A model generated the notes under the pieces. That model was not told where the DNA came from. It saw only the letters and a list, made by a program, of their open reading frames with translations, and ran no database searches. The translations under genes and the position numbers were made by a program. A DNA stretch of 64,000 nt from Neophaeotheca triangularis (taxonomy: Eukaryota): positions 186,001 through 250,000 of the forward strand of contig BAAIJX010000006.1 of NCBI GenBank assembly GCA_054600435.1, read 5' to 3'. Of this stretch, positions 3,846-45,748 are shown piece after piece (position 1 is the stretch's first letter; every line of letters starts with the position of its first letter).

Positions 3846-4136
3846 GTTGGCGGTCTCGTCGTCGTGGAAAGGGGCGGATGAATATTATAGTCGTTGTCGC
3901 TGTTCAAACGAGTGTGGAGGTGTCCGTAGGACGACTAATGCGAAGTGGGAAGGTCCCCTGAACGGCGGTGGTTATTATTCCAGACTTCCGTGAGCAAGTG
4001 CCATGGGTGTGTGCGTGGCTTGTGGCCCGGGGTGTGTATGTGTCGGTTGGATAGGGAGACGGGACGTCGCGGTTGGTGGTGGAAGGCGAGGGGGGCGTCA
4101 CGGTAGTGGTTTCGGCGGTGGTGGTGGGATGAACGG

Positions 4137-4185
4137 TGTGTGAGTGTGAGTGTGAGTGCGAGTGTGAGTGTAAGTGTGAGTGTAT
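4137..4185. repeat. (GTGTGA)n microsatellite upstream of palI
   Basis: Visible hexamer tandem array. Confidence 0.85.
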
Positions 4186-5446
4186 GCGAGGGAATGATGA
4201 AGAGTCTAGAAGCAACACCCGCCCAGCTTTTGACGAGAGCAGAGTACTAGTATGTAGTGGTAGTGGTAGTAGTGGCCGGGGAGCGGAGTAATTAACGTTA
4301 GTAGCTTCAACCTTCCTGCCTTTAAAAGTGGCGGGGGAAGCGACGACTGGCAATCGCAAAAGACAATAATCAATAAGGGACAGTACCTTTCCTAGGTAGA
4401 GATAACCACCATCATACCCACACACACAAACCAAACCACTCCCTCAACAATCCCACCCAACACTCTCCTAACCAACAACCCCCCTTAATCACCCCGACCT
4501 AAACGACCACGACGTTTCAACAGCACAAGAGTCGAAACTCGCGACAGCGCGCACGATCGAAGCGTGTACAGCGCGCGCGCGCGAGAGCCAAGCTTCCTAC
4601 AGTAGCACTACCTCACCTACCCGACCTTTTTACTAGAACGATTCGACAAGACCCTTGCATCGCTCGCACGCTTAATATGATACTGTAATTAATTAACCAG
4701 CACTTACTGCCGAACGAAGTGTTCGAAATTACCTATGTACCTATTTTAGATAGAGGTGATGGGAATTGGTAGAAGCCGATCGCTCTTGGAAGCGAATGGT
4801 GGTTTACTTTACTTACTACTTACTGCTGTACTACACCTTATAACTAGAACGTGGGAGACTGGGAGGTGACGTGAGGGGGAATTTGTTTGTTGGTATCCAT
4901 ATACCTCACCTACCATTATGTGCGCTCAAGTTGTGTAGTCTCCACAGCGTGTCCGGTACTTCTAGATTAATAGCATGAGTGCCTCCGATGACGATGTGCG
5001 AGCTTGGCCGAAGGGGACGGGACAGGACGGGATGCTTCGAGGGGGAAAAAAGGGGGCGTGGGTGGGTACGGCACGGTACCTTGTTATAAGGTATAAGTTA
5101 TAGTGTGTACGTGTAATGTCAGCAGTCATGGAAGCAGAAGGGTATCTCTGGTAGTTGAAATCTATGTCGGCGCTGTCGAATACTTCTATTACTTCTGTAC
5201 TGCTCTATAAAATGCCGAGTGTACTGCACACTGTTAGAAGCAACATCAGCGCCCTTACGCCGACCTGACGACGCATGCCCTCTTCTTTGGTAATGATCCG
5301 ATAGTCATTGCATGAGCGGAAGGATAACGTCGTTTTTGGAGAAAGAAAGAAATAAAAAAAATTTAATCGAGGAACTTCTCTCCCGGTCTTTCCAACACTC
5401 CACCCAGCACGCAACGCAACGCAATAATCACCTAAAAAAACTTCAC

Positions 5447-6796: not shown

Positions 6797-8849
6797 GCTG
6801 TGCGGTTTATGCAGGGCTGACCGAGTCTGCTATTGAAAGTACTGCCAAGGTAGATTGTTTACGAGAGAAGTCAAGGCAGAGCGAGAGGAGAGTATGTGAG
6901 TGTAAGTAGTGGTGAGAGTGGTGGGTGCAGGTGGGCTTGAAGCATGGCGTCGAGAGTCGACGACTTCGCAATTGCCCACTTACTTAGCTATGCTCGCAGT
7001 GAGAAGCTGCATTGCTTTGGAGAGTACCTACTTGCACCTCTCTGAGATATTTCACCATGTGGATGAGCACTACTACCTCCTAGTGTGTAGGTGACCAGCC
7101 TTTCTCAAGTTGACATGCACGGATGCTGATAAGCTACTGCTTGAGAAAGCCCAAGTGTCCAGCACCCGCTATACACCAAGTACAAATCCAAATGGGAGGA
7201 TGTCTGAGAGACAACAACCTCAAGACGAATCGCGCGTGCTTCTTAAACCATACCAGCGGGGGATCGGGATCCACGCTCGACCAAGACCTGACCACATTGA
7301 GATGTTCTCTCAGGGCAAGGAAGACAGGGAAGCTTGGAAGGGTCAGGGAGTAGTCAAGATTGTGAAACTCTTCCTAGAAGATTCATGATAGGGCAAGGGG
7401 GGCGCCCGAAAGACAGCCTCGAGGTTGATGACACACGAGCAATAATATGAGGACAGTAAAGTAAAATGTGGATGAGTGAGATTGGATAGATATTGACGAT
7501 AGCCTTCAAGTACTACAGTACCTACAGTAGGCAACGCAAGACCAAGACTGTGATGGAGGGGTAGTTGATGATGGATATTTAAGAATGCACTTTGTAGGTA
7601 GTGAGAAGAGAGAGAGAATGGAAAGTAAGGTGAAACGAGCATCAGAGACATGGATGGATGTGGTAGTACCTCCCCTCCCAGTACGGGTGTCTCGGAGTGG
7701 GGGCCACCTCGTTTCAACTTTCCACCTTCAGCACGTGCCTATCATTTTAATTGACGGGAAGAGGGCGGGAAGCCCACTTTTTCATACCTGACGCTGAGAC
7801 GGGCACAAACGAACTTCTAATTAATCTACCTTACTCTACCTAGTACTATACATATACATATACACATATACACATATACATACGTTATTACCTAGTCATT
7901 AGATATTACCGCCTAGTCTCGATATTATTACCACCCGGTATCCAATGCCTTCTCTCCCACTTCAACCTCAACCTAAACCTCACCGTCGCTACTACACTAT
8001 CCAAGCCTCTCTCTCTCCCCCCTGCCTGCGTATTACTACCGCCTCTCGCTCACCTACTGTACCTACCTACTGCACATTCCTTTGTTTGCTCTAGCTCTTA
8101 CTCTTACTCTTGCTCTTACTGTTGCTGTCGCTGTTTGAAACCCAACCCTCTCCTTTTCCTTTCCTCATCCACTTTTTGCATTCCGCCCAATCACACCCAA
8201 CAAACCCGCCAGCTCGAGCTCCTGTCGTCTGCTACACCACAACAACAACAACAACAACAGCATCACAAAATCTGCCCACCTTTTGCCTTGGGTACCTCCA
8301 GGGCTTAACTACCAACACCATTGCGACGTCATTCGCTTGTCCCCATTGCATTCGTTCGAGGCAGGACCTCATCTGAACAATAAGGTACCTTAGCCATTGA
8401 GAGCCTGCCTATTGTCCTGCTACACTCGCACATGCCGCCATGTACAACTCGAAGCCAGCCACCTACGCGACTTTGTAACGTCATCTTTTGTACCTTTGTT
8501 GCATCTGAATCCATACACCGCGCACAACTTGCCAATCTGGACATTGGCCTTCCCACACTTTTGAAGCTGTGATCAGGAGTGTGCAGCAGCGTTCGCGAAG
8601 ACCGGCACTTCGCAGGCATCTATCCGTCAGGCCCGGAAGCTCGACCAACACCAGGAAAAGGCTGCTTGCAGTCAATCTCTTCCGTCCAATCGCTCGGGTA
8701 GCGAGAGTACGACCAGAGTCACAAGGTTGGTGCTCCAGCAGTCAGCAACTTTCAGCCCGGTTTCCCGCCAGAGTGATACCGCCGGGTTGTTTGGGAAGCA
8801 CGACTCCCACGTTTGTGCGCTATTGGATCGCCCCCCCGATCGCGTCCTC

Positions 8850-25477: not shown

Positions 25478-26543
25478 TGTGAGTTTCGAGGAAGAGGATG
25501 CACACGCACGAAACGCAGGGCGTGAAGGACAGAGCGAGCATCACTTTTCTTTCTTGTGTGTCTGCTTTGTTTTTTTGTTTTTTTGTTTTTGTTTTTTTGC
25601 TGCGTTCAGAGCGATTATAAATTGAGGGGCTTTTATGGATATTGTTTCTTCTTTCTTTTTTTGGCATTCTTGATGGGTACCTTATGGGATTTCTTGTTTT
25701 GGAAACGGTTATCTTGGGTTCGCGGCTCAAGGGCTCGGGCGGTATATATATATAGGTATTAGTATGCGTGCTGTAGGGGTCTTTTTTTGTTCCTCATGTA
25801 GCTCCGTTAAGGTGGTGTGGGGATTTTGTGTGTCGTGAAGACTAGTATACCTACACGATTAGAACAAGGGGGATGCTGTATGCATAATAACGTGAGGTTA
25901 CCGTGCCATGACGACGAGTTGCTCAAATAAGAGCGTAGAATCTATGTCTTGCGTGCTTCCTAAATACAGCCGAAAACTTCACTCAATGATGAACAGCGCA
26001 ATGGCATCTCCCAGACTAGGCTCATAGCGACTGCCAAGCATTGGAAAAGATGCTTGCGTTTGCTTGAAGCGGACTAAGCTTCGCGAAGGTTTTGATGGCG
26101 GAGCTTGTGTTTGCTTCCTCGGCTCTACCTAGTATGCATCTCTTTCCTGACATGTTACTTCTTGCATTTTGTGTACCTTAAGGTACTTGTGCAGCGTGCT
26201 GTGGCATGCTAGTGGCACCCCTCATCGACTCCACAACCCCACCGGGAGTTCGAAGGCGTCTACTCTCTAGGCTTCCATAGTTAGTGAAAAGGCTATCTCG
26301 GCGCCAGTTACCCTTCAGGAAGGCGATGATTGTGGAGTGATCAGCCTAGGGTCTAAGATGGAAGGTCGTCCACACGACGCCGTTATACTCCGGCGCTATC
26401 GGTAGGTCCTGGAGATTCAATAACAATATAGAAAGGAGTCGCACTCCAAGATTCCATTATTAGTTCCAGGCTGTCCAGTCACTTCATGCTATCTCGTCTG
26501 TGGGGGCCTTCATATTTCATCGTCCTCTTATCATATCGCCATC

Positions 26544-28223
26544 ATGGGCTTCATCACTGTCTTCACAGCAGCAACAGCAGCCTTTGCCCTTTCGGCGTCT
26601 GCCCGCTCTAGTAAAGTGTCTCCCCCTCGCTCGAGATGGCAACATCTCCCTCCAGACCACGAATGGGGCCGCCATCACTACGCTTGGCATCATGACTGGC
26701 ACTGGGACCATCACGGACCTCCTCCAGGACCAGACGTGCACATTCCCAACATGGGCAATTCCACGTTCAGTCAACTCATCGACCACTCCAATCCTGACCT
26801 GGGTACTTTCGAACAGTTCTATTACTATTCCACCGAGTTCTGGAAAGGGCCCGGGTCACCCGTAGTCGCTTTCACCCCCGGCGAGGTCAATGCTACGGGT
26901 TATGCCTCGTACCTGTCCACGAATCGGACCACAGGCGTCACGGCCAAGGAGATAGGCGCGGCGGTTGTTGTCATTGAGCACCGCTATTGGGGAACGTCTA
27001 CTCCGTTCACAGAGTTGACGACGGCTAACATGACCTATCTCACTCTCGAGAACTCGATCAAGGACTTCACTTACTTTGCCAATAATGTCAAATTCCCTTT
27101 CGCCCACCATGCTTCCAGCAACGCCAAGGACGTCCCCTGGGTCTTCATGGGAGGTTCTTACTCCGGCGCTCTTGCCGCTTGGATCGAGAGCATTGACTCT
27201 GGTACTTTCTGGGCCTACCTCGCCTCCTCGGCGCCCGTTCAAGCGATTAGCGATTACTACGGATATTTCCTGCCCGTGCAGCAAGGCATGCCCAAGAATT
27301 GCAGCACAGATGTCTCCCTTGTCGTCGACCACATGGACGACATATTCACGAACGGCAGCCCATCGGAAATTAGCGCTCTCAAAACCCGCTTCGGCGTCGA
27401 CAGCATCGAACATGTCGACGACGTCATGGCTTTCCTCGAATGGGGTCCCTGGCTCTGGCAAAACAACCAATTCTACGCCAACGGCGGCTTCTTCGAATGG
27501 TGCGACTACATCGAGAACTCGGTCAACGCATCCAGCAACAACCTACCAGGAGCCGAGGGCGTCGGCCTGGAAAAAGCCCTCTCCGGCTACGCCCGCTGGG
27601 TGCAAAACGAGCTCATCCCAGGCTTCTGCGAAGACACTTACGGCTACTACTCCGGCGACTACAACCTCGAATGCACCAACACGTACAATTTCAGCAGCCC
27701 CCTCTTCCGCGACACCAGCCTCAGCAACACCATTGACAGGCAATGGCAGTGGATGCTCTGCAACGAGCCCTTTGGCTACTGGCAAACCGGCGCTCCCGCG
27801 GACCGTCCAACCATCGTCTCGCGCCTCGTCGACGCCAACTACTGGTCCCGACAGTGCGCTTTGTGGTTCCCGCCGGGCGCCAACGGCGAGACGTTCGGCC
27901 TCGCTCAAGGCCGCTCCGAAGCTGACACCAACGCTTACACCCAAGGCTGGTCTTTCACAAACTCCACGCGCCTCATGTATACCAATGGCGAGTTTGACCC
28001 GTGGAGGGAGGCGAGTGTTTCGGCGGATCTCAGGCCCGGCGGTCCGCTGCAGAGCACGGAGCAGGTTCCCGTTAATATTGTGCCCGGTGGTTATCATGTC
28101 AGTGATTTTATTACTAGGAATGGGGAGGTGAACGCAGGGGTTCAGGCGGCTATTGATCGCGAGGTTGCGCAGTTGAAGGCTTGGGTTGGGGAGTGGCCTA
28201 CGAAGCGGCATTGGCAGGGGTAG
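26544..28223 (+). CDS. Secreted serine peptidase, family S28 (559 aa)
   Basis: Signal peptide, FSQLIDHSNP, IEHRYWG, nucleophile motif GGSYSGAL, ASSAPV, WQWMLCNEP, NGEFDPW, and catalytic His in GGYHVSD. Confidence 0.93.
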   Translation: MGFITVFTAATAAFALSASARSSKVSPPRSRWQHLPPDHEWGRHHYAWHHDWHWDHHGPPPGPDVHIPNMGNSTFSQLIDHSNPDLGTFEQFYYYSTEFWKGPGSPVVAFTPGEVNATGYASYLSTNRTTGVTAKEIGAAVVVIEHRYWGTSTPFTELTTANMTYLTLENSIKDFTYFANNVKFPFAHHASSNAKDVPWVFMGGSYSGALAAWIESIDSGTFWAYLASSAPVQAISDYYGYFLPVQQGMPKNCSTDVSLVVDHMDDIFTNGSPSEISALKTRFGVDSIEHVDDVMAFLEWGPWLWQNNQFYANGGFFEWCDYIENSVNASSNNLPGAEGVGLEKALSGYARWVQNELIPGFCEDTYGYYSGDYNLECTNTYNFSSPLFRDTSLSNTIDRQWQWMLCNEPFGYWQTGAPADRPTIVSRLVDANYWSRQCALWFPPGANGETFGLAQGRSEADTNAYTQGWSFTNSTRLMYTNGEFDPWREASVSADLRPGGPLQSTEQVPVNIVPGGYHVSDFITRNGEVNAGVQAAIDREVAQLKAWVGEWPTKRHWQG

Positions 28224-29019: not shown

Positions 29020-30195
29020 ATGCGGCTACTCAACACAGATACCTTGAAACTACAAGACTTTCTCGAGGGCCAGGTCCCAATCTACGCCATGCTCTCTCAC
29101 AGGTGGGGCCGCGACGAAGCCACCTACAAAGACTGGCTCAAGAATCGTGCTAGGGAAGGCTTGAGTAAGCAGAAGATCCTTTCGCTATGCACGGTGGCTC
29201 AGAATCACGGACATGACTGGGTTTGGGTCGATACCATCTGCATCGACAAAAGCAGCAGCGCTGAACTTTCCGAAGCCATCAACTCCATGTGGACATGGTA
29301 TAAGCAAAGCGAGGACTGCTACGTCTATCTCTCTGACGTACCCTCAAAAGCAGAGGTTCAAGGAGAATTGGAATCGCTCGAGCATTTCCGCTCAAGTGAC
29401 TAGTTCACTCGGGGCTGGACGCTGCAGGAGCTCCTCGCGCCCAACAACGTAGTCTTCTTCAACGCAGTCTGGGAAATTATCGGCTACAAACAAGTCCACT
29501 CCATCGCAAGAGAGCTCTCGACCATCACAAATATACCCACCCGATACCTCCGCAGCAACTCTAACATCTACGCCTCCAGCATAGCCCAACGCATGTCCTG
29601 GGCTGCGAACCGGCGTACAACCCGCATCGAGGACACAGCCTATAGCCTCCTCGGCCTCTTCGACGTCAATATGCCACTCTTGTACGGCGAAGGCAAGCGC
29701 GCATTCATGCGCTTGCAGCAAGAAATCCTCAAGAAAAGCTCCGACGAGTCGCTCTTCGCGTGGCGGCACCCGCAAGTCGACGCTCTATACCGTACCGGCA
29801 TGCTCGCGCCTTGGCCTTCGGCTTTTGTAGATAGCGGACATGTTGTTGCCTCGGATTATGGCGAGACGCTGCCTGTGGTAGCTAGGAAGCCTTATCAGAT
29901 GACGAATAAGGGTTTGGAATTCAGTGCCGCGGCGGAACTTGTAGGTGAGGGGTTTGACGAAGCTTATGTCGTGCCACTGAATTGCTGGGAGCCGAGGCGA
30001 ATTGGTTCAGGGAACGATGAGGTAATGGGGCAGTGTGAGATTGTGTTGACTCGGCCTTTGGGCATGAGATGGGCGAAGCTGGATCATGCTGAGAGGATGA
30101 ATTGTAGGGAGTTGGGGGAGGAGCTGCGGTTCCCGCGAGACTCGAGAAGGAAGGCTAAGGAGGTGTTGTTCTATGTCCACCAACCGGGGCTGTGA
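29020..30195 (+). pseudogene. HET-domain (heterokaryon-incompatibility-type effector domain) gene interrupted by an in-frame TAG at 29401-29403
   Basis: MRLLNT...YAMLSHRWG..E...WVWVDTICIDKSSSAELSEAINSMWTWY...CYVYLSDV, then SD*FTRGWTLQELLAP (consensus W-F-T-R-G-W-T-L-Q-E-L), continuing in the same frame to MSWAANRRTTRIEDTAYSLLGLFDVNMPLLYGEG. Confidence 0.88.
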
Positions 30196-31003
30196 TGTGG
30201 AATGCGAGGGGTTTTGAGGGTCTGGCTTGGCCGTCGATGTTGCGTGCTCAGATTTTGAGGGTCATCGCAGTGGCGCCACAGGCTTTAGCCCTTATGTCAC
30301 CTTGACCGAAGAACAAGAGCTAAGAAGGATGGATTGGCGTCGTTTTGAGACAGCACGAAATGAGGTTGGAGTAAGGACGACTTTGATATGCCACTTGAAG
30401 CACTACATCACCTTCCGTCGACGACACGACATGACCCAGTATCCCCAACTATCGACCTTTTCTTCGGTGCTCTTGCGAGCTCATCGAAGGCAGAAAAATA
30501 GGACAGAAAACCCGTATCGCGATGCCCGAGCCATGAGTGCGGCCGAGACAAACTGTATCAAGACTTTTGACAGGGAACCCTGTCCATCGGGGAGACACTG
30601 GACGCTACCCACGAAGCTGCTAGAGAAGGCACCTTTTCTTCCACGTCGCGTTCGATTCCCAACGACATCACGAGACTCCCAAGTTCTCCCTGGCGATCGG
30701 GCCTTCCATGGACAAAGGGTCAGGCATACCCTTTGGGCAAACATTCCCGCTGCTCCTGCGATGCCGTGTAAATGTATTGCGCAGGATCGGACAGAGCCTC
30801 GTAAAATGACGAGCCTATCAAAGTCGGCGCGAGCTCCGTAGCTTCACATTCCAGGGAACTTCGTTAGGCGAATACGAGGGACGGGAATGAGGATCTTGGA
30901 TTCGTACAACAAGCACAGCCTAGACAATATAAGAGCTGTGCCTCCGCTTTCCCGGGTTGTGATATGCGCTCATCTATGGTGCTTGGCAACTCTGAAAGAC
31001 AAC

Positions 31004-34000
31004 ATGCCCTGGAAAACGCTGCTCGCGTTCGTCGTTATGGCCCAAGCCCAGCAAAAAGGTGTGTCTCATAATGAGCAAGAGGTTTTGCGCACGATAACGG
31101 ATCTTCTGGAGTAAATTTCATCACGGTCACTGTCTACGGAATATGCCCCACCACATTGTCTCTTTTCAGCCGGGCATTTGGGACCGGCTCAACAGCGCAT
31201 CACAATGGCTTACAGCCTGGGCACCAAACGCCAGGCTTCTCGATACCAGGGGCTCACACTGGTCCAAATGGCACTAGCAAGTTAGATGGATCCCAGATTG
31301 CGAATGTAACTGTTTCCGACGAGAGCGGTCTGCCGTTAGCTACTGCCTCCCCAACTTCATCTTTGGGATCCTATACAGAAAGCTCTGGCAGCTACACAAG
31401 CCAGCAAGACGGTGCTGAATCCAGGAGCTCGAACGTTGGCGTTTCAAACCAGGGGACTAGCCGTGCTCCTACAACGAGAACAGGCGACTCAACAGCAACA
31501 GCCGACTTGTCGTATCAAAGTGCCCTCTCTGGCTCTGGTAGCGCAACCAACCAGCCCGATGACCCTCAAACGACGTTGAAGGGTGTTTCTTCGAGCTTCA
31601 CATCATCCACAAACGCGTTGTCTAGTAAGAGCGATGGCCAAGCTTCGACGGTCTCATTCATCGCTACGGCCACCACAGAAGTTCCTCCGGCGAGCGCTGC
31701 AACCGTGATTCTGGGAGGGCAGACGTATACCATTACACAACCAATCACTGGAGCCGGCATTGTTATTGCTGAGACAACGATATCAATCGGAGGTACGTCT
31801 GCCATAATTGATGGAACAACCGTCTCTTTGTCGCCCTCCGGAGTCATTATAATCGGGAGCGATGGTCGAACTTCGACTGCTCCATTTGGCACCGCCACTA
31901 ATACGATCGTAACGATCCCGAGCTTTTCGGGTGACCCTCCCGGGGCTTCACCCCTACCAACTACAGCAGCGTCGAGTCCAACAGGCACACCACCTGTGCT
32001 CACGACATGGTTGACTGGTGGATCCTACATTACTACTATTATCGGCGGAGTAGAGATTATGGCATCTCAAAACGGCCAGCTTGTAACAACGCGCGTTGGC
32101 GGCTTCACCACAAGCTATCTCGTTGCACCATCATCTGTAGTGGCAACGGTAGCAAACGCCGCTGTCACCCCCTCCCAGAATCCCAGCGACAGCAATTGGA
32201 TCGCGGAGGCACGTATCGGTCGCTGCTCAGACTACGACAGTCTCTTACTGCAGATACCCTCACTGGCTAGTAACATGCGGGATTATATTCGATGGCTCTA
32301 GATCGAGAACCTTCTCGCGCCGAATGTCTAACTGGCTCGTACCCCGTGCCGCCTCTGGAGATTGTGAAATGCTTGCTCCGAGGCGGAGAACTGTCTAAGG
32401 TTTTCATACACCAACAACGAGTGTATACTGTTCGACTCTGTCATTGGTGTGGAACTTGCTTTTGGGCCTACATTCTCTGCCCTGCGCATCGACAATGCCA
32501 CGGTCGGTCCGCTACAGGTCAAAGGTGCCTAGAGGTAAACTGGAAGGAGGACGTTCAGACTTGTGCTTATCACCCTTTCAATGTCTTTCTGAGCCCCGGC
32601 AGCATCACCGCGTATTCGGCACAACATATGTGCTACCCCATGAACCCTATCTGCCCATCCGGCGATGGATCCTATACCAAAGTAACCCGGGCCTTCTCTG
32701 ATACTTGACTCGGCGCGGGTCCCTTTCTCTAATGCAAATCTGTGGCTTTACATGGCTCCATTTTTCGCCTGGACTGCAACGGGGGCTAAAATGGAAATGA
32801 TTTGGGAGCGTTCATGACAGATTCGTTCCAAGCCTGCCGCGATACTTGTAGCCAGCGAGGGGAGCTGTGTGCTGGACTGGTCTACAATCCCCAACATGCC
32901 GACAGTCCGTGCTTCCTGAAACACTCCATCGGCACAAAGTCGACAAGAACGCCAGCCGCGCTCGCTCTTCTGAAGACCGGTAGCACTCTCGCGACTCAGA
33001 CGGATTCAAACTGTGGCTCGACCTATAGGACCGCGGATGGCTCGTTGTTTGCACTTCCATGCAATAGGCGAGTAAGTATTTCGAACTTGGCTGCACAGCT
33101 TGTCGCGTTCCAAGCTTGTGCCAATTCACGAACAGTGGAATGGTAACGACATATTCAATTTCCGATGTAACACCTTCCGTGCATGTATTAGTCGGTGCGC
33201 TGTCTTCGGCAGCGGGTGCGCCGGCATAGCTTGGGATGGGGGTGAGACAAGATGCTGGATCAAAAGTGCAACGCCCGGCTCTGGCACAGAAGGCTCACGA
33301 CGCCATGCCGTAAGACAGAACCAGGCAACGTTCTCGACCGGACAACATTGCAGCAGCAGCACACCGGTCTGCTATCCGACAGCAGCCGCATGCCTTCCAG
33401 TTATGATCAGACTCTGTTTCGCAGTAAGCCTGCTCCTTTAAATCGAAATCTGCCCAAGACTGCCACTAATCTTGGCATGGAAGGCCTCGACGGATCCATG
33501 TTCCGCCTGGAGTACGGCGTCGAGTACTTTAAAAATAACCAAGGCTCGTCACTGAAGACCGGGAGCCTTCAAAATTGTTTTGATGTTTGCACTCAGCGTG
33601 AGGCAACTTGTGCAGGAGTGTCGTATGATACAGCCTACCCCGAAGACGACTGCTATATCAAATACGCACTGTCGGATCCGAGACCGGCACCGGCCACTCG
33701 GTCCAGCATGGTCCGCGTGTCTAGTGGTAGCAGCCTCGCTACTGGGAGAGAAATCGCATGTCCTAGTCCGGGGTTTCCCGACTATCAGACAACAGACGGT
33801 TCACTGTTCCGGATTGCTTGCGACAGGAATGTGAGTAGTACCAACGATTACACATTCGTCATGTTGATCTTCCCGAAGAGTTGCTGACTGGGCGCAGTAC
33901 GCCGGTAATGATATTGAGGTTGGTCGGGTTTCCTCTTTCCGGATGTGTGTCGAGCGATGCGCTGCGTTCGGTAGCGGATGCGCAGGGGCATCGTATTCAT

Positions 34001-34100
34001 ATACCGAGGGTAGGTGCCGGATTAAACGAAGCACGCCTGTCGAATCGAGCTGGTCGGGTAATGGGCAGTCTGTTTGCAGGGTTGGGATGCCAACCATATC
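31004..34100 (+). pseudogene. Degenerate secreted S/T-rich protein with four PAN/Apple-like Cys modules
   Basis: Signal-like MPWKTLLAFVVMAQA, an S/T-rich stalk (31156-32301), then four C-x3-C...CAG...C-x-(I/L)K modules (FQACRDTC..CAGLVY..CFLK; FRACISRC..CAGIAW..CWIK; LQNCFDVC..CAGVSY..CYIK; FRMCVERC..CAGASY..CRIK). In-frame TAA at 32787-32789. The 3' end is approximate. Confidence 0.65.
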
Positions 34101-34384
34101 GAGCGGACAAGATTGTGTTTAGTGGCAGGATACACAGACTCATGGTTTTGTTTTAGTACGTTGAGTGCCCGGGAAGTTCTCAATTTTTGGACGTTGTAGC
34201 TCTGATAAGACGAACTTTGACTTGACAGTGACCTCTGATGTTGAGCTTCCGTGGATGTTGCGTAGAGTGCGGTAGTTAGCCAAATTAGCTCTAATCGATC
34301 AGCGCAGGGAAAAATGAACGTCATTACATATGGAAAATGAGCTCAAACGCCCGGGGTCCACACACATCAAATCGACTATGATTC

Positions 34385-35254
34385 CTACGGAATAGAGCTA
34401 TAGATGGTGTCACCTTCCTTAGGCGGCTCAAGAAAATCGTTCGGCACATCCTCCGGCATCTGCCTTTCTTCAGCCCACCGTCTCACATCCTCAAAATTCC
34501 GACAGGTATGCCTAGTGTTGAAGTCCACAAAAGCTTGCGGTGTCTCGCTAGACTCCGGTTGATACCAAACTTGACCCAGCACGCCAATGTCGATAGTGCA
34601 CATCAACTCCTGTCGGATGATATCCAAGCAGTGCGAGACGTGCTTCTGCACGACGCTGTCGCTGTTGGTGAAAGCGCCTTCGCCCCGCTTGTGGTAGTAG
34701 TCGTAGTTGTAGTAGAGACTCTGCCGAACGAGGTTGAGACAGTGGAGGTGATGTAGGCCTTCGACGTTGGCTGGATATCCGCCGCCGTACTTATCGGAGA
34801 TCTTGACTTGGTCTTTGGCTAAGCCTATGCGTTCGGCGTCGGACTCCGGTACGACGAGGCTGCGGTAGCCGACACCTAGAGCTTCCCAGGCTGCGTCGAC
34901 TTCGGGGCTGGCGGGCTGTCGGTAGACGTTCTCATTCATCAGCGAGCCGTTGAACCGGACGGTGTTGTAGGCGATATCGACATCTTTGGTCACTGGGGAT
35001 GGCCAGGAGGTCTTGGCTATAAGGGTGGCGTTGTCGACGTTCTTCAACCAGTGGTCTCCGGCGAGAGCGCCTAGGAAAGCTGATATGCAGCAGAGCAGTG
35101 TGACAAATGCTATTGCCAGGTATGATGTCGCCAACGAGCTCTGTCGTGGTTGCGGTGCTGTCCAGGCTCGTCCGTCATCGGATAGCAGTTGCTCCTCGCT
35201 CTCATTCCTCGAATGCATTGCCCTCGAGGCTTTTTCTCTCATGCTTTCCAACAT
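34385..35254 (-). CDS. DUF3328 / UstYa-family oxidase (289 aa from ATG at 35254)
   Basis: N-terminal TM anchor (YLAIAFVTLLCCISAFLGALAG), PEVDAAWEAL, two HxxHC motifs (EGLHHLHCLNLVRQ; HVSHCLDIIRQELMCTID), and DFNTRHTCRNFEDVRRWA. Intronless. Confidence 0.95.
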   Translation of the reverse strand: MLESMREKASRAMHSRNESEEQLLSDDGRAWTAPQPRQSSLATSYLAIAFVTLLCCISAFLGALAGDHWLKNVDNATLIAKTSWPSPVTKDVDIAYNTVRFNGSLMNENVYRQPASPEVDAAWEALGVGYRSLVVPESDAERIGLAKDQVKISDKYGGGYPANVEGLHHLHCLNLVRQSLYYNYDYYHKRGEGAFTNSDSVVQKHVSHCLDIIRQELMCTIDIGVLGQVWYQPESSETPQAFVDFNTRHTCRNFEDVRRWAEERQMPEDVPNDFLEPPKEGDTIYSSIP

Positions 35255-36720
35255 AGCGATGGTGGAATGGAAGGAAGAAATATCAAACAAAGAATAAAGG
35301 TGGCAAAGTGAAAAGACAATCTGCGTTTTCGTGAGTGAGATAAATGCTGCAATGAAGATGGGGATCACTGCTAGAGATTAAGAGAACATCAGCGGAGGAA
35401 GACCATTCTTCTAAAGTTGTCTACATTCATCGCGAGCTTACGGATGGACTACCATAAACAGACATTCGCGGGCTGTCCGATCAGACGAGTGGTGCTCTAT
35501 CGTACTAACACCGACACAGCTGTACAGCCCACATAACTATGGAGGTGGCCTTGTTGGCTCGTGTGTGCGCAAAGCTAACATCAAGCTATTCCCGGACTGT
35601 ACGATGCTCGTAAAGCAGAGTTTGAACCTTCCTCGCCGCTTAGGCAGCCTTGATATAGCTTAGCTGCTAGCCCTCAAGTGATGTGCGAATAGGTGGCGCA
35701 AGTCATGCCGCAATTCTGTAAAAATAGCATACTGGTTTTGCGCCACAGGTCGTAGCGTAGAACACCCAAGAAGCTTTAGATGATTCCAGTATGGTGATAG
35801 ATTCAGGACGACGTTGGTGTTCAGGGCTGCGACGGTCCTGCCCGCTGAATTCACGCACGGAAGCCGTCCCCGTTCACTTCTTTAAACGGCTAAGCCCGGG
35901 CTAGACCGAGGTCACGTGCAAGCCTCTTTGGACCTCACCTCTTGCTTTTGGCTGCGAGACAGTATGGTACGACCCTAAACTTCCTCTTCAGCTCGGCTAA
36001 GCTTAGACGACTGCACTCTCAGCTCAGACCCACTTCAACGGACAGCTCGTATATCTTGTTACCAGCATCATTCTGTACGAGCATTGGGTCCGAAAGCGTC
36101 CTGATCGTTTATAGCGCAGTCTCGTGGGGCCGACCTAAATCAGACGAAGCTTCGTCCGGATGCCACTCAAAGGCAGATGGGGTCGCTATCATCCGGTAGC
36201 GCAAACATGGTCCGATATGCCTTGCAAGACTTGGATTCGTCAGTGACACCCTAAGGTTGCGGTCGTACGGTGACTACAGTCTCAAAAATAGCACCATTAG
36301 ATCGTTGTAGACGCAAGCCGTAGGGCAGATCGATGCCGCAACCCACATAGATACCCCACGGATACCATTCTTGTGGCGCAAACGGTTCGGTCGCCCCCGT
36401 GACACGAGCTGTCAGCTGTCGAGATCCTAGCGTCCGAGTGCAGCCAGCCCTTTGTCGTATTCCGGGCTTGTACGCTCATCCAATATACCTCATGGCTTGC
36501 TCTGTTCGGTTCGACCACCATAGAGCCTTGAGGCCATTGAGCCTGGTCTCGAGAACAAATAAGTACCTGCTCAACATCACCTCTCTCAATCTTTTTCTCT
36601 TCATCACAACATCCAACATCATCAGCACTCGCACGCACACCAACTCTCAAATCATTCTTATCACGTACCCGCATCGGCAATCTTTTCCACCCAAACTTAT
36701 CAGCCAACACCACCATCACG

Positions 36721-37839
36721 ATGAAGAACGTCGCAGCCATCCTCGCATTCTGCTCTGCAGTCTCCGTCATCGGGAGCCCCCTCCCTAATGCAATCCCCAA
36801 AACCAAGCCCAAGGGGGTGACGTCGTACGAGAAGTACGACTTGCCAGGTAAGCCATTTCCTAACAATCACGAGCTTCCCAAGGAAGGGTCGACTTTCGTG
36901 CAGCCTCTCGAATACCCAAACAAAGGCTGACACACCCTCTAGCGACGTACTCCAAGTACGCCCTGCCCGGTAAGCCATCCCCCAACAGGCTGACACCCTC
37001 GAGAGCCGGGTTATGGTCCGTACAGGCTTGTGGCTAACGCATTTGTCAGCAACCTACTCCAAGTACGATCTCCCGGCCAGCTATGACAAGTACGCACCGG
37101 TCCCAGACGACAAGAAGAAGCACGCCGCCAGGGACGAGGAAGCCGTGAAGAAGCGCGAGCCGGCAGAGTACAAGAACTGTGAGCACCCAAAAATTCTCAT
37201 CAACCTCTTCGAAAATGAATCAGCTGACGAGAATAGACGGCACCTACCAGAACTACCCCAAGCCAGACCCCAAGCCCGCACCGCCGCCGACCAAATACGC
37301 GAGCTACAAGGACTACCCCTCCAGCTACGCGAACTACAAGTCGTACACCCGCGACGCTGAGGCTCAAGATGAGGTAGCAGAGGCCGTGGAAAAGCGCGAG
37401 CCGGCCGAGTACAAGAATTGTAAGCGCCCTTGCAAAACCTACCGAGTCACGTAAAAGCAACCCGACTGACAAGAGACAGACGGCACCTACCAAAACTACC
37501 CGAAGCCAGACCCCAAGCCCGCGCCACCGCCGTCCAAATACGCGAGCTACAAGGACTACCCTTCGAGCTACGCGAACTACAAGTCGTACGCTCGCGAAGC
37601 TGAGGCGGAAAGCGAGGGCCAAGCCGCCCCGGTTGAGGAAGCAGAGGGCCTGGAGAAGCGCGCCGACTACGGCAAATACGGGTACGTAGTCGGCAAATTT
37701 ATGGTTGAGTTTGAGGATTTGCTGACTTGAGTTTTCTTACTGCAGGTCTTACCAAGGCTACAAAAACGACCTTCCGGCTTCGTACAAGGAGTACAAGAAC
37801 CTTCCGGCTTCTTACAAGAAGTACCCTGCCTCTTCTTAG
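36721..37839 (+). CDS. Secreted Kex2-processed Tyr-rich repeat protein (candidate RiPP precursor, 253 aa); exons 36721-36847, 36943-36969, 37050-37178, 37237-37419, 37480-37681, 37746-37839
   Basis: Five GT-AG introns, each with a CTRAC branch site, give a 762-nt open frame. It encodes a signal peptide MKNVAAILAFCSAVSVIGSP, LPA(T/S)YxKY units, two near-identical repeats after KR (EPAEYKNYGTYQNYPKPDPKPAPPP(T/S)KYASYKDYPSSYANYKSY), acidic spacers, and a final KR-ADYGKYGSYQGY... unit. Confidence 0.9.
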
Positions 37840-38503
37840 AGATAACCTGTAACCAGGATGCTGAGACGGAGGCGAAGGAGCAGATGTGCGGCTGGAGGCT
37901 GGTGGATCGATTAAAGTTGTGCGACGTGGTTTAGGTGTTTAGAAGAGTTGGGCAGCAGGGACGGCTCGGGGAAGTAACGGGGTGTTCGTGGTATCTGGAT
38001 TTTGGGATCGAGGCGTTCGTCAGGCAAGTTGAAATTCGTCGTCTATAGGTTTGCAATGTCGTTTTCAAGTCGTTGCTTTACAATACCGGAGAGACCGTCC
38101 CGATCAGGATTGTCAGTCGGTACTTTATGCCTTCGTGCAAGTTGAACCATATGCATCTGTTTTCTTTATGGTCCTTGGGCCGGAAGGATCGACATCGTGT
38201 GGAGGGGCGTCAACGCCGGGAGTTTCGAGCGAGAGAATATGAGCGATTCGACTGCGGAGACGCTATAGAGCCTGCGTTGGGTTTCCTTCTCCGTTGGCGT
38301 CAGGCTTATATCCCCCTGTGTTTATGATTGTGTTCAGCCGAAGACTGATCGTACCTCGATGCTAGCTCTAGCTGAGAAATACCATCGAGATGACTGCTGG
38401 ATTGAGCAAGCCGAGCATCCAGAGAATTGATCGGTGGCTATTAACGAGGTTCGATCAACCAAAACTGCCGCTTCGCTGTTGTACCAGCTTGCTGCCGTCT
38501 AGT

Positions 38504-39727
38504 TCAAGCCAGCGCGCGCAGCCCATACGTGCCGTTCTGCACAACCATCTCTCTGGCCAGGACATTTTCAATCTCACTACTGCTGTAGCCCAGCACATGG
38601 AGAACATCCAGCAGTCCCTTGGTGTTGATTCTCGCAGGCGCGGCGGCCTGCACCTTGGGCTTAGCATTGAAAGCGATCCCCAAACCCGCGGCACGCATCA
38701 TGAGCAAGTCATTGCTTCCATCACCAACCGCAATTACCCTCTCCGTAGGAATCGCGTTTTCCTCCGCCAGCCTTCCCAACAACTCCCTCTTTTTCTCGGC
38801 GTGAATAATTGGCTTCCCAGCCACCAACTCCCCAGTAAGAAGCCCCTGCCCCTCCTCCTCAACAAGGTGATTGGCAAAAGCATAGTCCAGTCCCAAAGTC
38901 TCCTTAACCCACTCCGCCAACGGCGTAAAACCCCCACTCAGCACTGCAGTCTTCCACCCCAACGCCCTCAAGACCCGCACCAACTCTTTCGCCCCCGGCG
39001 TAAAACTGATGACCCCATTTTTCATCTGCTCCCATATTCCCACAGGCACACCCCTCAGTAATCCCACTCGCGCTCGCAAACTTGTCTCAAAATCCGTGTA
39101 TGGCGCTTCGCCTCTCATAGCCGCTTCCGTGATCGCAGCGACTTGGTCGTACAAGCCCACCGCTCTTGCCAACTCGTCTATGACTTCTTGTTGGATGAGG
39201 GTGCTATCCATGTCGAAAACCGCTAGCCCAGGGGTCCTGTGCGCTTTGTACAGCTCTCCCGGCTGAATCACGAGCTCTACCCCATATCGCGATTGCAGGC
39301 CCTTGAAAGATGGCGCATTGCAGAGCGCCGTGCATTGGCCCAACGTCCATGGCTCTTTGAACTTATCCTTCTTCTTGTCATGCCGGCCGGCGCGGACCAG
39401 GGGTATAGTGATTTCCGCGACGCGGGAGGGTACGCCCTGGTCGACGTCGAAGACATTGTGGTGGTCAATATGCCGGACGCTGGCGTAGCGCTGCGAGCGG
39501 TGACAGTCGAGCTCTTCTTGGATGTGGAGGATGATGTTCTGGGTAACGTTGTTCCAGGGTTCTGGCGTTGTTTTGGGTTCTTTGGAAAAAGCGAGGACGA
39601 TGATCTCTGTGCCTTCGCCTAGGTCGTCGTGGGTGAATTTGCGCGCTTTGGAAGGGCGGTCTGGGTCGAGGGTAGGATCTTGGAAGCGAGGATCTTCGCG
39701 CCAGAATTGCGTGTTGGTGTCGGCCAT
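38504..39727 (-). CDS. SER2: Phosphoserine phosphatase (HAD family)
   Basis: LAVFDMDSTLIQQEVIDELA, ITEAAMRGE, LSGGF, AVGDGSNDLLM, GIAFNAKPKVQ; first ATG at 39727 (MADTNTQ). Confidence 0.93.
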   Translation of the reverse strand: MADTNTQFWREDPRFQDPTLDPDRPSKARKFTHDDLGEGTEIIVLAFSKEPKTTPEPWNNVTQNIILHIQEELDCHRSQRYASVRHIDHHNVFDVDQGVPSRVAEITIPLVRAGRHDKKKDKFKEPWTLGQCTALCNAPSFKGLQSRYGVELVIQPGELYKAHRTPGLAVFDMDSTLIQQEVIDELARAVGLYDQVAAITEAAMRGEAPYTDFETSLRARVGLLRGVPVGIWEQMKNGVISFTPGAKELVRVLRALGWKTAVLSGGFTPLAEWVKETLGLDYAFANHLVEEEGQGLLTGELVAGKPIIHAEKKRELLGRLAEENAIPTERVIAVGDGSNDLLMMRAAGLGIAFNAKPKVQAAAPARINTKGLLDVLHVLGYSSSEIENVLAREMVVQNGTYGLRALA

Positions 39728-43377: not shown

Positions 43378-45748
43378 ATGTCTGTCGAAGCGCAGAACGC
43401 GTCCTCTGTGACTCCTTCCTACCGTCGCAACGGCAAACTCTTCAGCTGCGAGCCGGTGAGTGGTTGTTGCTCGCCAGGCTGGAATACATGGCTAACAGAT
43501 ACCTTCGCAGTGTCGAAAAGGCAAGCTCCGTTGCGATCACGGCAACCCTGTCTGTGGTCGATGCGCACGCCGTAACAAATCGGAGCAGTGTATTTACCAT
43601 CCTGCGCCTCTGACCAAAACGCGGTCGTCTCCAAGTGTCGGGCCTCAGAGAGCTTCTGCGTCTGCCCAGATGAGCTACACCGGGACAACTCCTTACCCGG
43701 ATTTTCGAGCCAGACCAAGTCCTGTGACCCGTCCGCTTAGTGATAACGGCGGCTTCCAGAATGGTGTCTACTCGGGACACGCACAAGCTAGCAGTGTCGA
43801 CCCTGGTCGCCACTCGACTCGTGCAATGGCTCTCACCTCACACGAGGATCAAAGAAACCCCTCCTCTGCCTACTTGAGTCCTGAAAGCAGCAATACACCA
43901 TTGCGCGAGCCGAGGCCTGGCTTTCTAGGTCCAACTAGTTATTCAGCAGTGTACACAGAGAATCACATTGCTCCAGATCCTACTGGAGAAACGGAAGATG
44001 GCTCGAGCTTACCTCCAGTGTCCGCAGAGAAGGTCCAGCAAGGAGCTGACGTTTTCGCTCTCCTGCGTGACCAGAGTGTCTTCCGTCGCCTCACGCAGCG
44101 TCTTTTCGAACTCACCGACGGTATTGTAATTATGCTGCCAGTCTTTACGACTTGGGTAGATGAGCTGTGGGCCGAGTGGGGTCCTCTGTTGGCCGAAGGC
44201 AGGCCCGACGACCTTTTAGCGCTTTCGAGACTCGTCTGGCGCAACACTAGAAGTCCTTTCAAACCACACGCTCGGATGACTACCAAGGAGTGGGCTAAGT
44301 CGGCTTCCGGTAAGGGCTTGCGATGGGAGGTGGTTGGCGCGATCCTGACCGTGTCCGGGCTTACGGCCACTAGTTTGAGCCGCTGGGATTCAATATTCGA
44401 GTCTATGAGGGATTTTCGCAATGACCGCAGTGTCTTCACTGAGCGTATGCGAAAGGCGGCTGATTACTGCCAGTGCTTCTGCTATGAAGCGGAGGTCTTG
44501 AACGATCTCTGGCTCTGCTTCTTGTTCAACAACCTGATCTTGACAGAAACGATTAAGGGAGATGCTCGTAAGTTTAGGAGTTGTCATCGACGTCGGTGTC
44601 CTTATTAACGAGCCCCAGACTACGCTGTATGGCAAAGGACCTGCGAGATGTGCGATGCTATAATAGCTCTGGGTATACATCGAGGAAATGCCACCGATTC
44701 GGAGACGCCTTTCTTCCTTGCGGAACTACGCAAGCGAATCTTCATGGCGGTTTATGGTCACGACAAAAGCCTCGCTACCTTCCTAGGTCGGCCGCCGCGA
44801 CTGTCACATCGGTATTGCAAGATGGAGATGCCCTTGGACCTTTCGGACGACCAGCTCTTTAACTCGGGTCCCGAACAGGATGCCATTGTTGCATCCCTCG
44901 ACTCCGATGGATGGAACACCACCGGCCAGCTCTCTCGCACCACTTGGGGGAGAGTGTGGTTCCAACACTGTCGCATTCGCGAGGACATACTCGAGATCTC
45001 CCTTGGCACAGGAGACGAGGACGCTAACGAGCGAGCCGACCAGGTGCGTGCAAGACTCAATGCACTCCACGCCAGCTTCCCAAGCTTCATGAAGTTGTCC
45101 ACCGAAGATATTCTTGGTTCAGACAGCCACCCTTCCAACCAAGCCCTTCGCTCCGGCTTCGAATTGGGACCGGGCGACAACAAACTCCTCAACGCCATCT
45201 ACTGGGTTTGCATCCATGCCGGTATCGTACAGACCGAGTTCCTCCTGCAGCGAGCCTTGATAAACCGATGGAAAACTGACACTGCCCAACTCATACCCGT
45301 CTCTCGCCGCCTTCTGGCTATCGTCTTGATGGCAACGACGAAAAGAGATTTTTTTCGGGATTGCGACATGGTGTACATACTTTCCGTTCATGGTCTGCCC
45401 GCGGCGGGCGTGCTAGCTATAGAGCTGCTGAGGCAAGAACAGAGCCAGAACTACGATTCCGATCTCTTGCCCCGTTCACAGACCATTCAAGACCTCAGCG
45501 TAATAGTATCGGCGCTCGGAACCGTTGGACCGGATGATGGCGACGCCGGTATATGCCGACAGGGTCAACGGAGCCTCAAGCGCGTCCTGGATCAAATCCT
45601 CAGTCCGACCTCAAGACCGTCACAGCAAACGAACTTTGCAAACCCCGAACAGCCGTTGTTCGACGACTTGAGCTTCCAATTCCCTCTTGGCAACGACGCC
45701 GACTTCTTCCAATGGCTGGATAGCTTCAATGGCTTCAACGCCGTCTAG
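43378..45748 (+). CDS. Zn(II)2Cys6 transcription factor with fungal TF middle-homology domain; introns 43456-43510 and ~44568-44618
   Basis: Spliced RRNGKLFSCEP/CRKGKLRCDHGNPVCGRCARRNKSEQCIYHPAPLT; later ELRKRIFMAVYGHDKSLATFLGRPPRLSHRYC. Confidence 0.92.

Follow-up and report, generated by a model that had tools for sequence, protein, structure and literature searches.

To our knowledge, the core is only a few residues long in all characterised fungal peptides that depend on UstYa (DUF3328) proteins, most of which are toxins from variable clusters. Ding's original definition of the dikaritins reportedly included a tyrosinase and a methyltransferase in the cluster, both of which are said to have later proved optional. 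UstYa proteins are described as indispensable for the Tyr-based cyclization of ustiloxin, asperipin-2a and phomopsin (PMC7329392, PMC6514808). The asperipin cluster is reported to have one UstY homologue only, and the FYYTGY core of asperipin-2a to be cross-linked by ethers that join Tyr side chains to β-carbons (PMC6514808).

Here we analyse a UstYa gene that lies head-to-head with a gene for a Tyr-rich repeat protein in a 64-kb window (the whole stretch of DNA that was analysed). We propose, with a probability of roughly 0.6, that Kex2-type processing of the repeat protein releases peptides of 37–61 residues carrying Tyr triads (Y-x-x-Y-x-x-Y), which are cross-linked by the oxidase.

The pair resembles asperipin-2a (Aspergillus flavus, aprA/aprY) in its precursor with a putative signal peptide and KR-delimited repeats, its Tyr-rich core with a Y-x-x-Y element, and its single UstYa oxidase unaccompanied by a tyrosinase. 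Asperipin-2a is likewise described as made without a tyrosinase and a methyltransferase (PMC12048977). It differs in that the asperipin core has 6 residues, whereas the units here have 37–61 residues with 8–10 Tyr in two clusters, and in that the apr cluster has a reductase and a transporter. Ustiloxin and phomopsin (UstA/PhomA, UstYa/Yb) also have a precursor of the Kex2-processed repeat protein (KEP) type beside a DUF3328 gene, with Tyr as the residue reported to be cross-linked (PMC7329392). Their cores, however, are Y-x-I-x tetrapeptides in many copies, whereas the window precursor has only 3 Ile, and they have a tyrosinase, a methyltransferase and a second UstY. Among the 25 window open reading frames (ORFs) scanned, out of 112 of at least 130 aa, there is neither a tyrosinase nor a methyltransferase, a reductase, a transporter or another UstY, and tblastn detects no second UstYa copy within the window. 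The units exceed every characterised dikaritin core 5–10-fold in length, and only two copies are near-identical. The precursor has the KEP layout of repeats parted by KR sites, and in place of the short dikaritin core (4–9 residues) in many copies it has units of 37–61 residues.

The oxidase gene and the divergent spacer

The oxidase gene and the adjoining spacer comprise the following features.

34385–35254, minus strand: UstYa/DUF3328 oxidase gene, one exon, 289 aa plus stop (PF11807, translation)
34739–34753, minus strand: HxxHC motif 1 (residues 168–172), with H168, H171 and C172 invariant (n = 32 aligned)
34628–34642, minus strand: HxxHC motif 2 (residues 205–209), with H205, H208 and C209 invariant (n = 32 aligned)
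35057–35125, minus strand: predicted N-terminal membrane anchor, about residues 44–66 (hydrophobicity)
35255–36720, no strand: divergent spacer between the two start codons, presumed shared promoter region, 1,466 bp

A first-pass annotation of this DNA had read a complete DUF3328 gene with both HxxHC motifs, divergent from its partner across about 1.47 kb, and had proposed a HMMER comparison with PF11807. That comparison and the measured spacer bear out both readings: the oxidase, whose coding part runs from 34388 to 35254 with the stop codon at 34385–34387, matches PF11807 with an E-value of 5.6e-61 and 206.6 bits (Pfam gathering score 25) over model positions 3–220 of 220. Hydrophobicity peaks in the 19-mer that begins at residue 46 (mean Kyte–Doolittle 2.5), and a hydrophobic stretch occupies the same alignment columns in 32 of 32 relatives. 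The subfamily numbers 598 proteins at E ≤ 1e-30, with about 54% identity across several ascomycete classes, and its range includes the Aspergillus fumigatus group. A profile search of the PDB with the oxidase matched no solved structure, and Rfam gave no match on positions 33000–39000. Transcription of the oxidase gene is seen as short contigs in one polyA metatranscriptome only; because the same polyA run covers part of the spacer, this signal may include DNA carry-over.

The precursor gene is spliced and expressed

The plus-strand gene (36721–37839) has six exons that make a 762-nt frame encoding 253 aa, and it appears only as fragments in the ORF listing of the window.

36615–37950, plus strand: precursor transcript, minimum extent (X2 contig, 1,160 nt, five joints); continues beyond
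36721–36847, plus strand: exon 1, predicted signal peptide (36721–36774) and start of Tyr-rich segment A (splice model, transcripts)
36943–36969, plus strand: exon 2, 27-nt mini-exon encoding one 9-residue Tyr unit (flanking joints in X1, X2 and X4)
37050–37178, plus strand: exon 3, end of segment A, spacer 1 (37133–37156, KR-terminated) and start of core B (splice model, transcripts)
37237–37419, plus strand: exon 4, core B up to its end at 37352 (46 aa and 10 Tyr in all), acidic spacer 2 (37353–37397, KR-terminated) and start of core C
37480–37681, plus strand: exon 5, core C up to its end at 37595 (46 aa and 10 Tyr in all), acidic spacer 3 (37596–37661, KR-terminated) and start of segment D
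37746–37839, plus strand: exon 6, remainder of segment D (which totals 37 aa and 8 Tyr), stop codon

The six exons had been spliced by hand in the first-pass annotation, and the frame yields the same 253-aa translation. The five introns are all GT..AG, each with a CTRAC branch-site-like motif, and transcript contigs from three studies, 95–99% like the window, contain the joints exactly as predicted: all five in X2, joints 1, 2, 3 and 5 in X4, and joints 1, 2 and 5 in X1. Exon 2 is a direct repeat of the ends of exons 1 and 3 (repeat families D4 and D6), and a 243-nt unit comprising exon plus intron is repeated within the gene at 89% identity (family D1). Window-type precursor genes may be unannotated in many genomes. 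Some parts of the stretch compared with transcripts have no RNA cover, and marine and aquatic runs have small word shares.

The precursor consists of Tyr-triad segments and Tyr-free spacers

The precursor contains 36 Tyr, 33 Lys, 31 Pro and only 3 Ile in 253 residues. Its N-terminus has hydrophobic residues 4–18 after Met-Lys, with a similar start in four of four database relatives. Of the 35 Tyr-to-Tyr gaps, 23 have a spacing of exactly 3 (Y-x-x-Y), where 2000 shuffles gave 3.9 on average and never more than 11, and all four occurrences of Y-x-x-Y-x-x-Y in the six frames of the window fall within this gene. The Tyr lie in four basic segments, A–D, of 61, 46, 46 and 37 residues with 8, 10, 10 and 8 Tyr. 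Most of these Tyr form Y-x-x-Y triads, grouped in two clusters with a Pro/Lys-rich linker between them. These segments have a net charge of +3 to +5 and hold 36 of the 36 Tyr; the spacers between them are Tyr-free, with net charges of 0, −4 and −6.

Three KR sites are present, at residues 86, 147 and 215. The first-pass view of KR-delimited units stands as to these sites and the 8–10 Tyr per unit, and its unit boundaries need revision: cores B and C end in TR and AR, which align with KR in relatives, and because relatives show a second processing site ending each Tyr-rich segment, we take the units to be 46-residue cores with separate acidic spacers, not KR-to-KR blocks. In the relatives, as in the window precursor, a signal peptide-like start is combined with KR followed by Glu-Ala or Glu-Pro dipeptides, a likeness to yeast α-factor and to KEPs. 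In α-factor, a signal peptide and KR followed by Glu-Ala/Glu-Pro form the classical layout for Kex2 and Ste13 processing.

The cores are under selection. Cores B and C, the only near-identical copies, differ over 46 residues at 8 codons synonymously and at 2 by conservative amino-acid replacements, with following spacers of 15 and 22 aa, respectively; between strains the precursor shows 6 synonymous and 3 non-synonymous changes, with Tyr untouched. In both comparisons, synonymous changes outnumber the non-synonymous.

A phmmer search with the precursor gave a single match among 1.84 billion representatives, P0004 from Amylocarpus encephaloides, and P0004 as query gave three further proteins, one of them from Acephala macrosclerotiorum. 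In each of these four database relatives, a linker rich in Pro or in Ser/Thr accompanies two clusters of Tyr, with KR and E-A/E-P spacers after them, and a Tyr spacing of 3 accounts for 20 of 28, 21 of 26, 19 of 22 and 14 of 18 gaps. One relative, P0007, has a Cys-rich insert. Altogether, seven related sequences share the precursor design, making eight Tyr-triad genes with that of the window. Pfam searches of family sequences (P0001, P0002, P0004–P0007 and the L004 ORF) gave nothing above threshold, a word-index protein search with exon 5 gave 0 matches to longer proteins, and the best ESM Atlas score with P0005 was 0.83, under the usable range.

The same features could describe a structural or adhesive secreted material, Tyr-polymerized by laccases, peroxidases or UstYa, in place of a precursor of a small product. 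The Ustilago Rep1 repellents and the Tyr/Lys/Pro-rich marine glue proteins of mussels would be comparable secreted materials, and the abundance of Tyr, Lys and Pro, the length of the segments, the Ser/Thr-rich linkers of relatives (which would also suit an O-glycosylated wall protein) and the Cys-rich insert of P0007 are all compatible with this. So are an oxidase subfamily as conserved as one with a housekeeping-like function and a multicopper oxidase gene that adjoins the pair in one metagenome locus (L004) and the UstYa gene in another (L002); no multicopper oxidase is found among the 25 scanned window ORFs. Against it, all relatives contain acidic spacers that lack Tyr, have Arg and KR at their flanks and are followed by E-A/E-P, an α-factor-type signal, and no GPI signal or wall-anchoring domain is seen in the precursor, nor any Pfam match above threshold in its family. 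We consider a structural role unlikely, and favour release of cross-linked peptides from the precursor.

The head-to-head pair recurs in other fungi

Searches with the oxidase found 15 metagenome loci, 8 of which, from five lineages, extend 1.5 kb or more upstream. In five of these 8 loci (L003, L004, L005, L013 and L015), which represent three of the five lineages, a secreted Tyr-triad gene lies head-to-head with the UstYa relative, 0.9–1.5 kb away (spacers: L004, about 1,042 bp; L013, 1,458 bp; L015, about 930 bp). The L015 gene is recognised by motif and layout only (tblastn E 2.4), and for L013 and L015 the automatic exon models were incomplete and ORF fragments alone were used. The other two lineages have no Tyr-triad gene: upstream of UstYa, L007/L008 have an Asn/Gln/Trp-rich secreted repeat protein, and L014 shows no such gene. 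No other ORF from positions 20–52 kb of the window matches the metagenome loci at E ≤ 1e-5; the pair therefore travels alone.

For named genomes, we compared the accessions of the UstYa relative in 23 strains with the KEP accessions in Table S2 of Umemura 2020 (PMC7329392). A KEP flagged 'DUF3328 in vicinity' has the adjacent accession in 8 of the 23 (Aspergillus aculeatus, A. clavatus, A. fischeri, A. sclerotiicarbonarius, Penicilliopsis zonata, Coleophoma crateriformis, C. cylindrospora and Hyaloscypha bicolor), these neighbours being known by catalogue entry alone, as Table S2 carries no sequences; for the remaining 15, the catalogue lists no KEP next to the UstYa accession. The eight neighbours (OJK01992.1, EAW08970.1, EAW15449.1, PYI08295.1, OJJ45070.1, RDW82950.1, RDW71558.1 and PMD64199.1) fall in different KEP types, 17, 47, 77 and stand-alone (0), all adjoining the same UstYa subfamily. 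KEP type G-6 of that study, described as Tyr- and Asp-rich with DUF3328 in 46 of 49 members (PMC7329392), was considered as the same family and set aside, the traced neighbours being of types 17, 47, 77 and 0, not 13. Full-text literature searches found no mention of the neighbour accessions or locus tags and no description of a Tyr-triad KEP. Tyr-triad precursors would be of the dikaritin/KEP kind and, as judged from accession adjacency, apparently already in a survey catalogue but never described. This agrees with the first-pass annotation, which had expected linkage to DUF3328 and had cautioned that surveys might already have noted such genes. Its reading of the genes as a precursor/oxidase pair is supported at two of the three points it had set for refutation, splicing with expression and linkage; that the oxidase acts on the precursor is what we infer.

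A further possibility is an ordinary KEP that yields linear peptides, acting as signals, antimicrobials or similar, beside a UstYa enzyme with another substrate, the two having only a bidirectional promoter in common. Most KEPs (78%) are reported to have no DUF3328 gene nearby (PMC7329392), UstYa proteins are described as also working outside KEP pathways, for example in cyclochlorotine (PMC12048977), and 598 members of the UstYa subfamily stand against only 8 Tyr-triad genes found. In some lineages the partner of the oxidase is instead a GNAT gene, directly downstream of the UstYa relative in L007 (49% identity to the window oxidase) and L012 (64%). By gene content these two loci resemble the lichen 'Clan R2', which is described as a ustY homologue with a GNAT acetyltransferase and for which the account reports no repeat precursor (PMC12048977); it differs from the window, where no GNAT gene lies beside the oxidase. 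Yet the head-to-head pair stays while all other neighbours change, pairing is seen again, as judged from adjacent accessions, in genomes of Eurotiales and Helotiales, and Tyr is the residue on which characterised UstYa enzymes are reported to act (PMC7329392, PMC6514808). We regard an ordinary KEP as improbable, more so than a structural role. A low-complexity region that is transcribed but has no function as protein, as its composition and lack of a Pfam family might suggest, is very hard to reconcile with precise splicing in three studies, an excess of synonymous changes between repeats and strains, and an architecture kept in seven related sequences.

Because the head-to-head pair recurs in distant fungi, the two genes together probably make an uncharacterised modified peptide.

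A proposed pathway

The two-gene module would produce a ribosomally made, post-translationally modified peptide. The parts of this scheme that we infer are signal-peptide cleavage, the proteolytic processing, the action of this enzyme on this substrate, the kind of cross-link it makes and what the product does for the fungus. The plus-strand product would be a secreted KEP that loses its signal peptide and is cut by kexin after the KR sites in the secretory pathway, perhaps also after TR and AR, with subsequent trimming by a dipeptidyl-aminopeptidase and a carboxypeptidase, as for yeast α-factor. The UstYa protein would be a membrane-anchored oxidase whose catalytic domain presumably faces the lumen, and would modify the Tyr triads, most likely by side-chain ether cross-links like those made by AprY on FYYTGY of asperipin-2a. 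The secreted product would then be a peptide, or fragments, with several macrocycles.

More speculatively, and in our judgement doubtful as a whole, this could be an ancient two-gene module across filamentous ascomycetes, in which one conserved UstYa iterates along Y-x-x-Y on Kex2-released peptides of 30–60 residues. The resulting multi-ring 'tyrosine ladder' peptides would far exceed all other fungal RiPPs in size, with a physiological role (wall surface, adhesion or development) and not that of a lineage-specific toxin. Precursor genes would then be multi-intron and of low complexity, and this would account for the UstY genes without precursors met in surveys, that of lichen Clan R2 included.

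Implications

In contrast to the short cores of characterised UstYa-dependent peptides, a widely conserved UstYa subfamily is paired here with a precursor whose unit is a long bipartite run with Tyr at each third position. Mini-exons can conceal such precursors, the 27-nt exon being an example. If the pairing is functional, it would extend the known substrate range of UstYa, provide an easily expressed two-gene system for UstYa chemistry, and reveal a widespread, probably physiological modified peptide.

Structure and transcription of the candidate precursor gene

The Tyr-rich gene and the UstYa/DUF3328 oxidase gene are divergently oriented, with 1,466 bp between their start codons:

34388-35254, minus: oxidase ORF, 289 residues (stop codon 34385-34387)
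36721-36847, plus: precursor exon 1
36943-36969, plus: precursor exon 2, a 27-nt mini-exon for a single Tyr unit of 9 residues, seen in spliced contigs from three runs
37050-37178, plus: precursor exon 3
37237-37419, plus: precursor exon 4
37480-37681, plus: precursor exon 5
37746-37839, plus: precursor exon 6

Joined, the six precursor exons give a 762-nt frame of 253 residues, identical to the protein spliced by hand in the first-pass annotation. All introns are GT..AG and have, 15-30 nt ahead of the acceptor, a CTRAC motif resembling a branch site. Public RNA runs were searched for the stretch and contigs of four runs aligned to it; those of X1, X2 and X4, which come from three different studies, are 95-99% identical to the window. 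In a 1,160-nt X2 contig spanning 36615-37950 the five introns are absent, each with the boundaries that were predicted; X4 contigs contain joints 1, 2, 3 and 5, and X1 contigs joints 1, 2 and 5. Transcription and splicing of the precursor thus follow the prediction, down to the 27-nt second exon, and the five introns proposed earlier are borne out by transcripts. Within the coding sequence the contigs show nine strain differences, six synonymous and three conservative (K85E, K119R and S174T), none touching a Tyr codon. In an AGAG run at the stop (37838) 2 nt are missing from all three RNA-derived contigs, with the TAG stop retained regardless.

RNA cover of the oxidase comes only from short contigs of X1, a polyA metatranscriptome, and its expression is weakly indicated because X1 also covers parts of the divergent spacer. 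These spacer contigs (35422-35812; one with 13 differences in 149 nt) could represent a long oxidase 5' UTR, a non-coding transcript or DNA carry-over.

Design of the precursor and its relatives

A hydrophobic N terminus is followed by four basic segments (61, 46, 46 and 37 residues; net charge +3 to +5) that contain all 36 Tyr. The three spacers between them contain no Tyr and each close with KR; they are 8, 15 and 22 residues long, with net charges of 0, -4 and -6. Tyr-to-Tyr gaps of exactly 3 account for 23 of 35, whereas 2000 shuffled versions average 3.9 such gaps and never exceed 11, and the four occurrences of Y-x-x-Y-x-x-Y in the six frames of the 64-kb window all lie inside this gene. 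With units of 37-61 residues, the precursor lacks the short, many-times-repeated core that defines a dikaritin.

The two 46-residue cores differ by eight synonymous and only two non-synonymous codons, their spacers are of unequal length, and the duplication involved a 243-nt block of exon plus intron. Direct repeats occur at exon ends and at the starts of introns 1 and 2, which suggests that the gene grows by duplicating such units. Metagenome locus L013 appears to contain an 18-nt mini-exon akin to the 27-nt one.

A word-index protein search with exon 5 gave no match, and exhaustive phmmer of exon 4 against 1.84 billion representatives had a single hit, P0004 of the marine fungus Amylocarpus encephaloides. 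P0004 as query retrieved three more, two metagenomic and one from Acephala macrosclerotiorum (P0007). These relatives share a putative signal peptide followed by modules and then spacers. In each module two Tyr clusters flank a linker that is rich in Pro or in Ser/Thr, and the second cluster closes with Y-K-R; the spacers are Tyr-free, rich in Glu-Ala and Glu-Pro dipeptides, and end in another Arg. Gaps of 3 make up 20/28, 21/26, 19/22 and 14/18 of their Tyr gaps, and no Pfam family covers the precursor-family proteins. In P0007 a Cys-rich domain of about 60 residues is inserted in the linker of the second module. Where the relatives close a core with KR, the window's protein has TR and AR at the aligned positions, and predicted cleavage at these core ends is therefore less certain.

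A conserved oxidase subfamily

The oxidase spans the entire PF11807 (UstYa) model (E 5.6e-61) and carries HxxHC motifs at residues 168-172 and 205-209, in agreement with its original assignment, and a single strongly hydrophobic stretch at about residues 44-66. At E<=1e-30 its relatives number 598, and the top named matches among them (53-60% identity) belong to Aspergillus, Penicillium, Teratosphaeria, Botryosphaeria, Zymoseptoria, Helotiales and lichen-forming fungi. Across 32 aligned subfamily sequences the columns average 54% identity, with no variation at the His and Cys of either motif.

Linkage of the two genes

Scanning metagenome contigs with the oxidase gave 15 loci (45-66% identity), of which eight extend 1.5 kb or more upstream of the match and entered the linkage count. 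An opposite-strand gene for a predicted secreted Tyr-triad (Y-x-x-Y) protein is present in five: L003, L004 and L005 (one lineage), L013 and L015, at start-codon distances of about 1,042, 1,458 and 930 bp, respectively. L015 is the weakest case, its Tyr-triad gene being recognised by motif and layout only. In L007 and L008 (one lineage) the upstream gene instead encodes an Asn/Gln/Trp-rich secreted repeat protein, and L014 has nothing comparable to a Tyr-triad gene upstream. The head-to-head arrangement thus recurs in three of five metagenome lineages with sufficient upstream DNA, as the proposed linkage with DUF3328 had anticipated. No other ORF of window 20-52 kb matched any locus at E<=1e-5 and the genes flanking the UstYa relatives vary; the pair is thus conserved by itself, outside any syntenic block.

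The L007 upstream protein (3284-4807, minus; 508 residues, a 16-residue Trp-containing repeat five times, no Pfam match) may represent another kind of substrate. In L007 and L012 the gene immediately downstream of the UstYa relative codes for a GNAT acetyltransferase (6880-7251 and 2233-2910, respectively), a layout recalling lichen ustY-plus-GNAT 'Clan R2' clusters, which PMC12048977 reports without a precursor. A laccase-like multicopper oxidase gene adjoins the pair in L004 (1455-3286), and L002 has one a short way downstream of its UstYa gene (1250-3022).

The window genes around the pair look unrelated to peptide biosynthesis:

26424-28223: S28-family serine peptidase, 6 kb from the oxidase
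33246-34122: PAN-domain protein, convergent with the oxidase
43496-45748: Zn2Cys6 regulator
Other window neighbours: Med12, HAD-type phosphatase, GH31 glycosidase, carboxyltransferase, AMP-binding enzyme

Of the 112 ORFs with 130 residues or more, 25 were compared with Pfam, and among them was no tyrosinase, methyltransferase, transporter or multicopper oxidase; tblastn detected no second UstYa copy in the window. The precursor is Pro-rich and an S28 peptidase is nearby, a neighbour not conserved in related loci. Four consecutive long ORFs at 29404-32708 (plus), with no Pfam match, are probably one large gene.

For named genomes, we took oxidase-subfamily GenBank accession numbers from 23 strains and sought Kex2-processed repeat proteins (KEPs) within one accession number in Table S2 of Umemura 2020 (PMC7329392; 7,878 KEPs). 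Eight strains have such a neighbour, all flagged DUF3328 in vicinity and known by table entry (Table S2 carries no sequences), not by Tyr-triad content.

Catalogued KEP neighbours of the UstYa subfamily
Type 17: Aspergillus aculeatus, A. sclerotiicarbonarius
Type 77: A. clavatus, A. fischeri
Type 47: Coleophoma crateriformis, C. cylindrospora, Hyaloscypha bicolor
Stand-alone: Penicilliopsis zonata

The 15 strains without a Table S2 KEP within one accession number include all four Dothideomycete entries checked and the Pseudogymnoascus and Exophiala strains; such a miss has several possible causes: the gene may be unannotated, the strain may not be in the catalogue, the repeats may fall short of the catalogue's criteria, or the gene may truly be absent.

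Interpretation

Earlier surveys had been said to note KEP genes near DUF3328, and Table S2 indeed counts them beside this UstYa subfamily; the pairing itself is therefore not novel. Full-text literature searching found nothing on the Tyr-triad design, on long cores of this bipartite kind, on how strongly this oxidase is conserved or on any product of the pair, a verdict that the surveys' sequence supplements could alter.

According to PMC7329392 and PMC6514808, UstYa proteins are indispensable when ustiloxin, asperipin-2a and phomopsin are cyclised through Tyr, DUF3328 genes are most frequent at the position adjoining KEP genes, and one UstY homologue in the asperipin-2a cluster suffices for two ether links in FYYTGY. 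We favour a precursor/oxidase relationship (probability about 0.6), because a predicted secretory precursor, alpha-factor-like signals, a probably anchored oxidase, a presumed divergent promoter and conserved linkage fit this known UstYa logic. The precursor would enter the secretory route and carry alpha-factor-like processing signals, and the probably membrane-anchored oxidase would act on it, both genes presumably sharing a divergent promoter region. The chemistry would most likely be Tyr side-chain cross-linking of the AprY kind, inside the Y-x-x-Y runs.

The main alternative, which we consider unlikely, is a structural or adhesive Tyr/Lys/Pro-rich material cross-linked between molecules; the long precursor units, the Ser/Thr-rich linkers of the relatives and the multicopper oxidase genes in L004 and L002 speak for it. 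That the oxidase is merely co-located with the precursor is less probable still.
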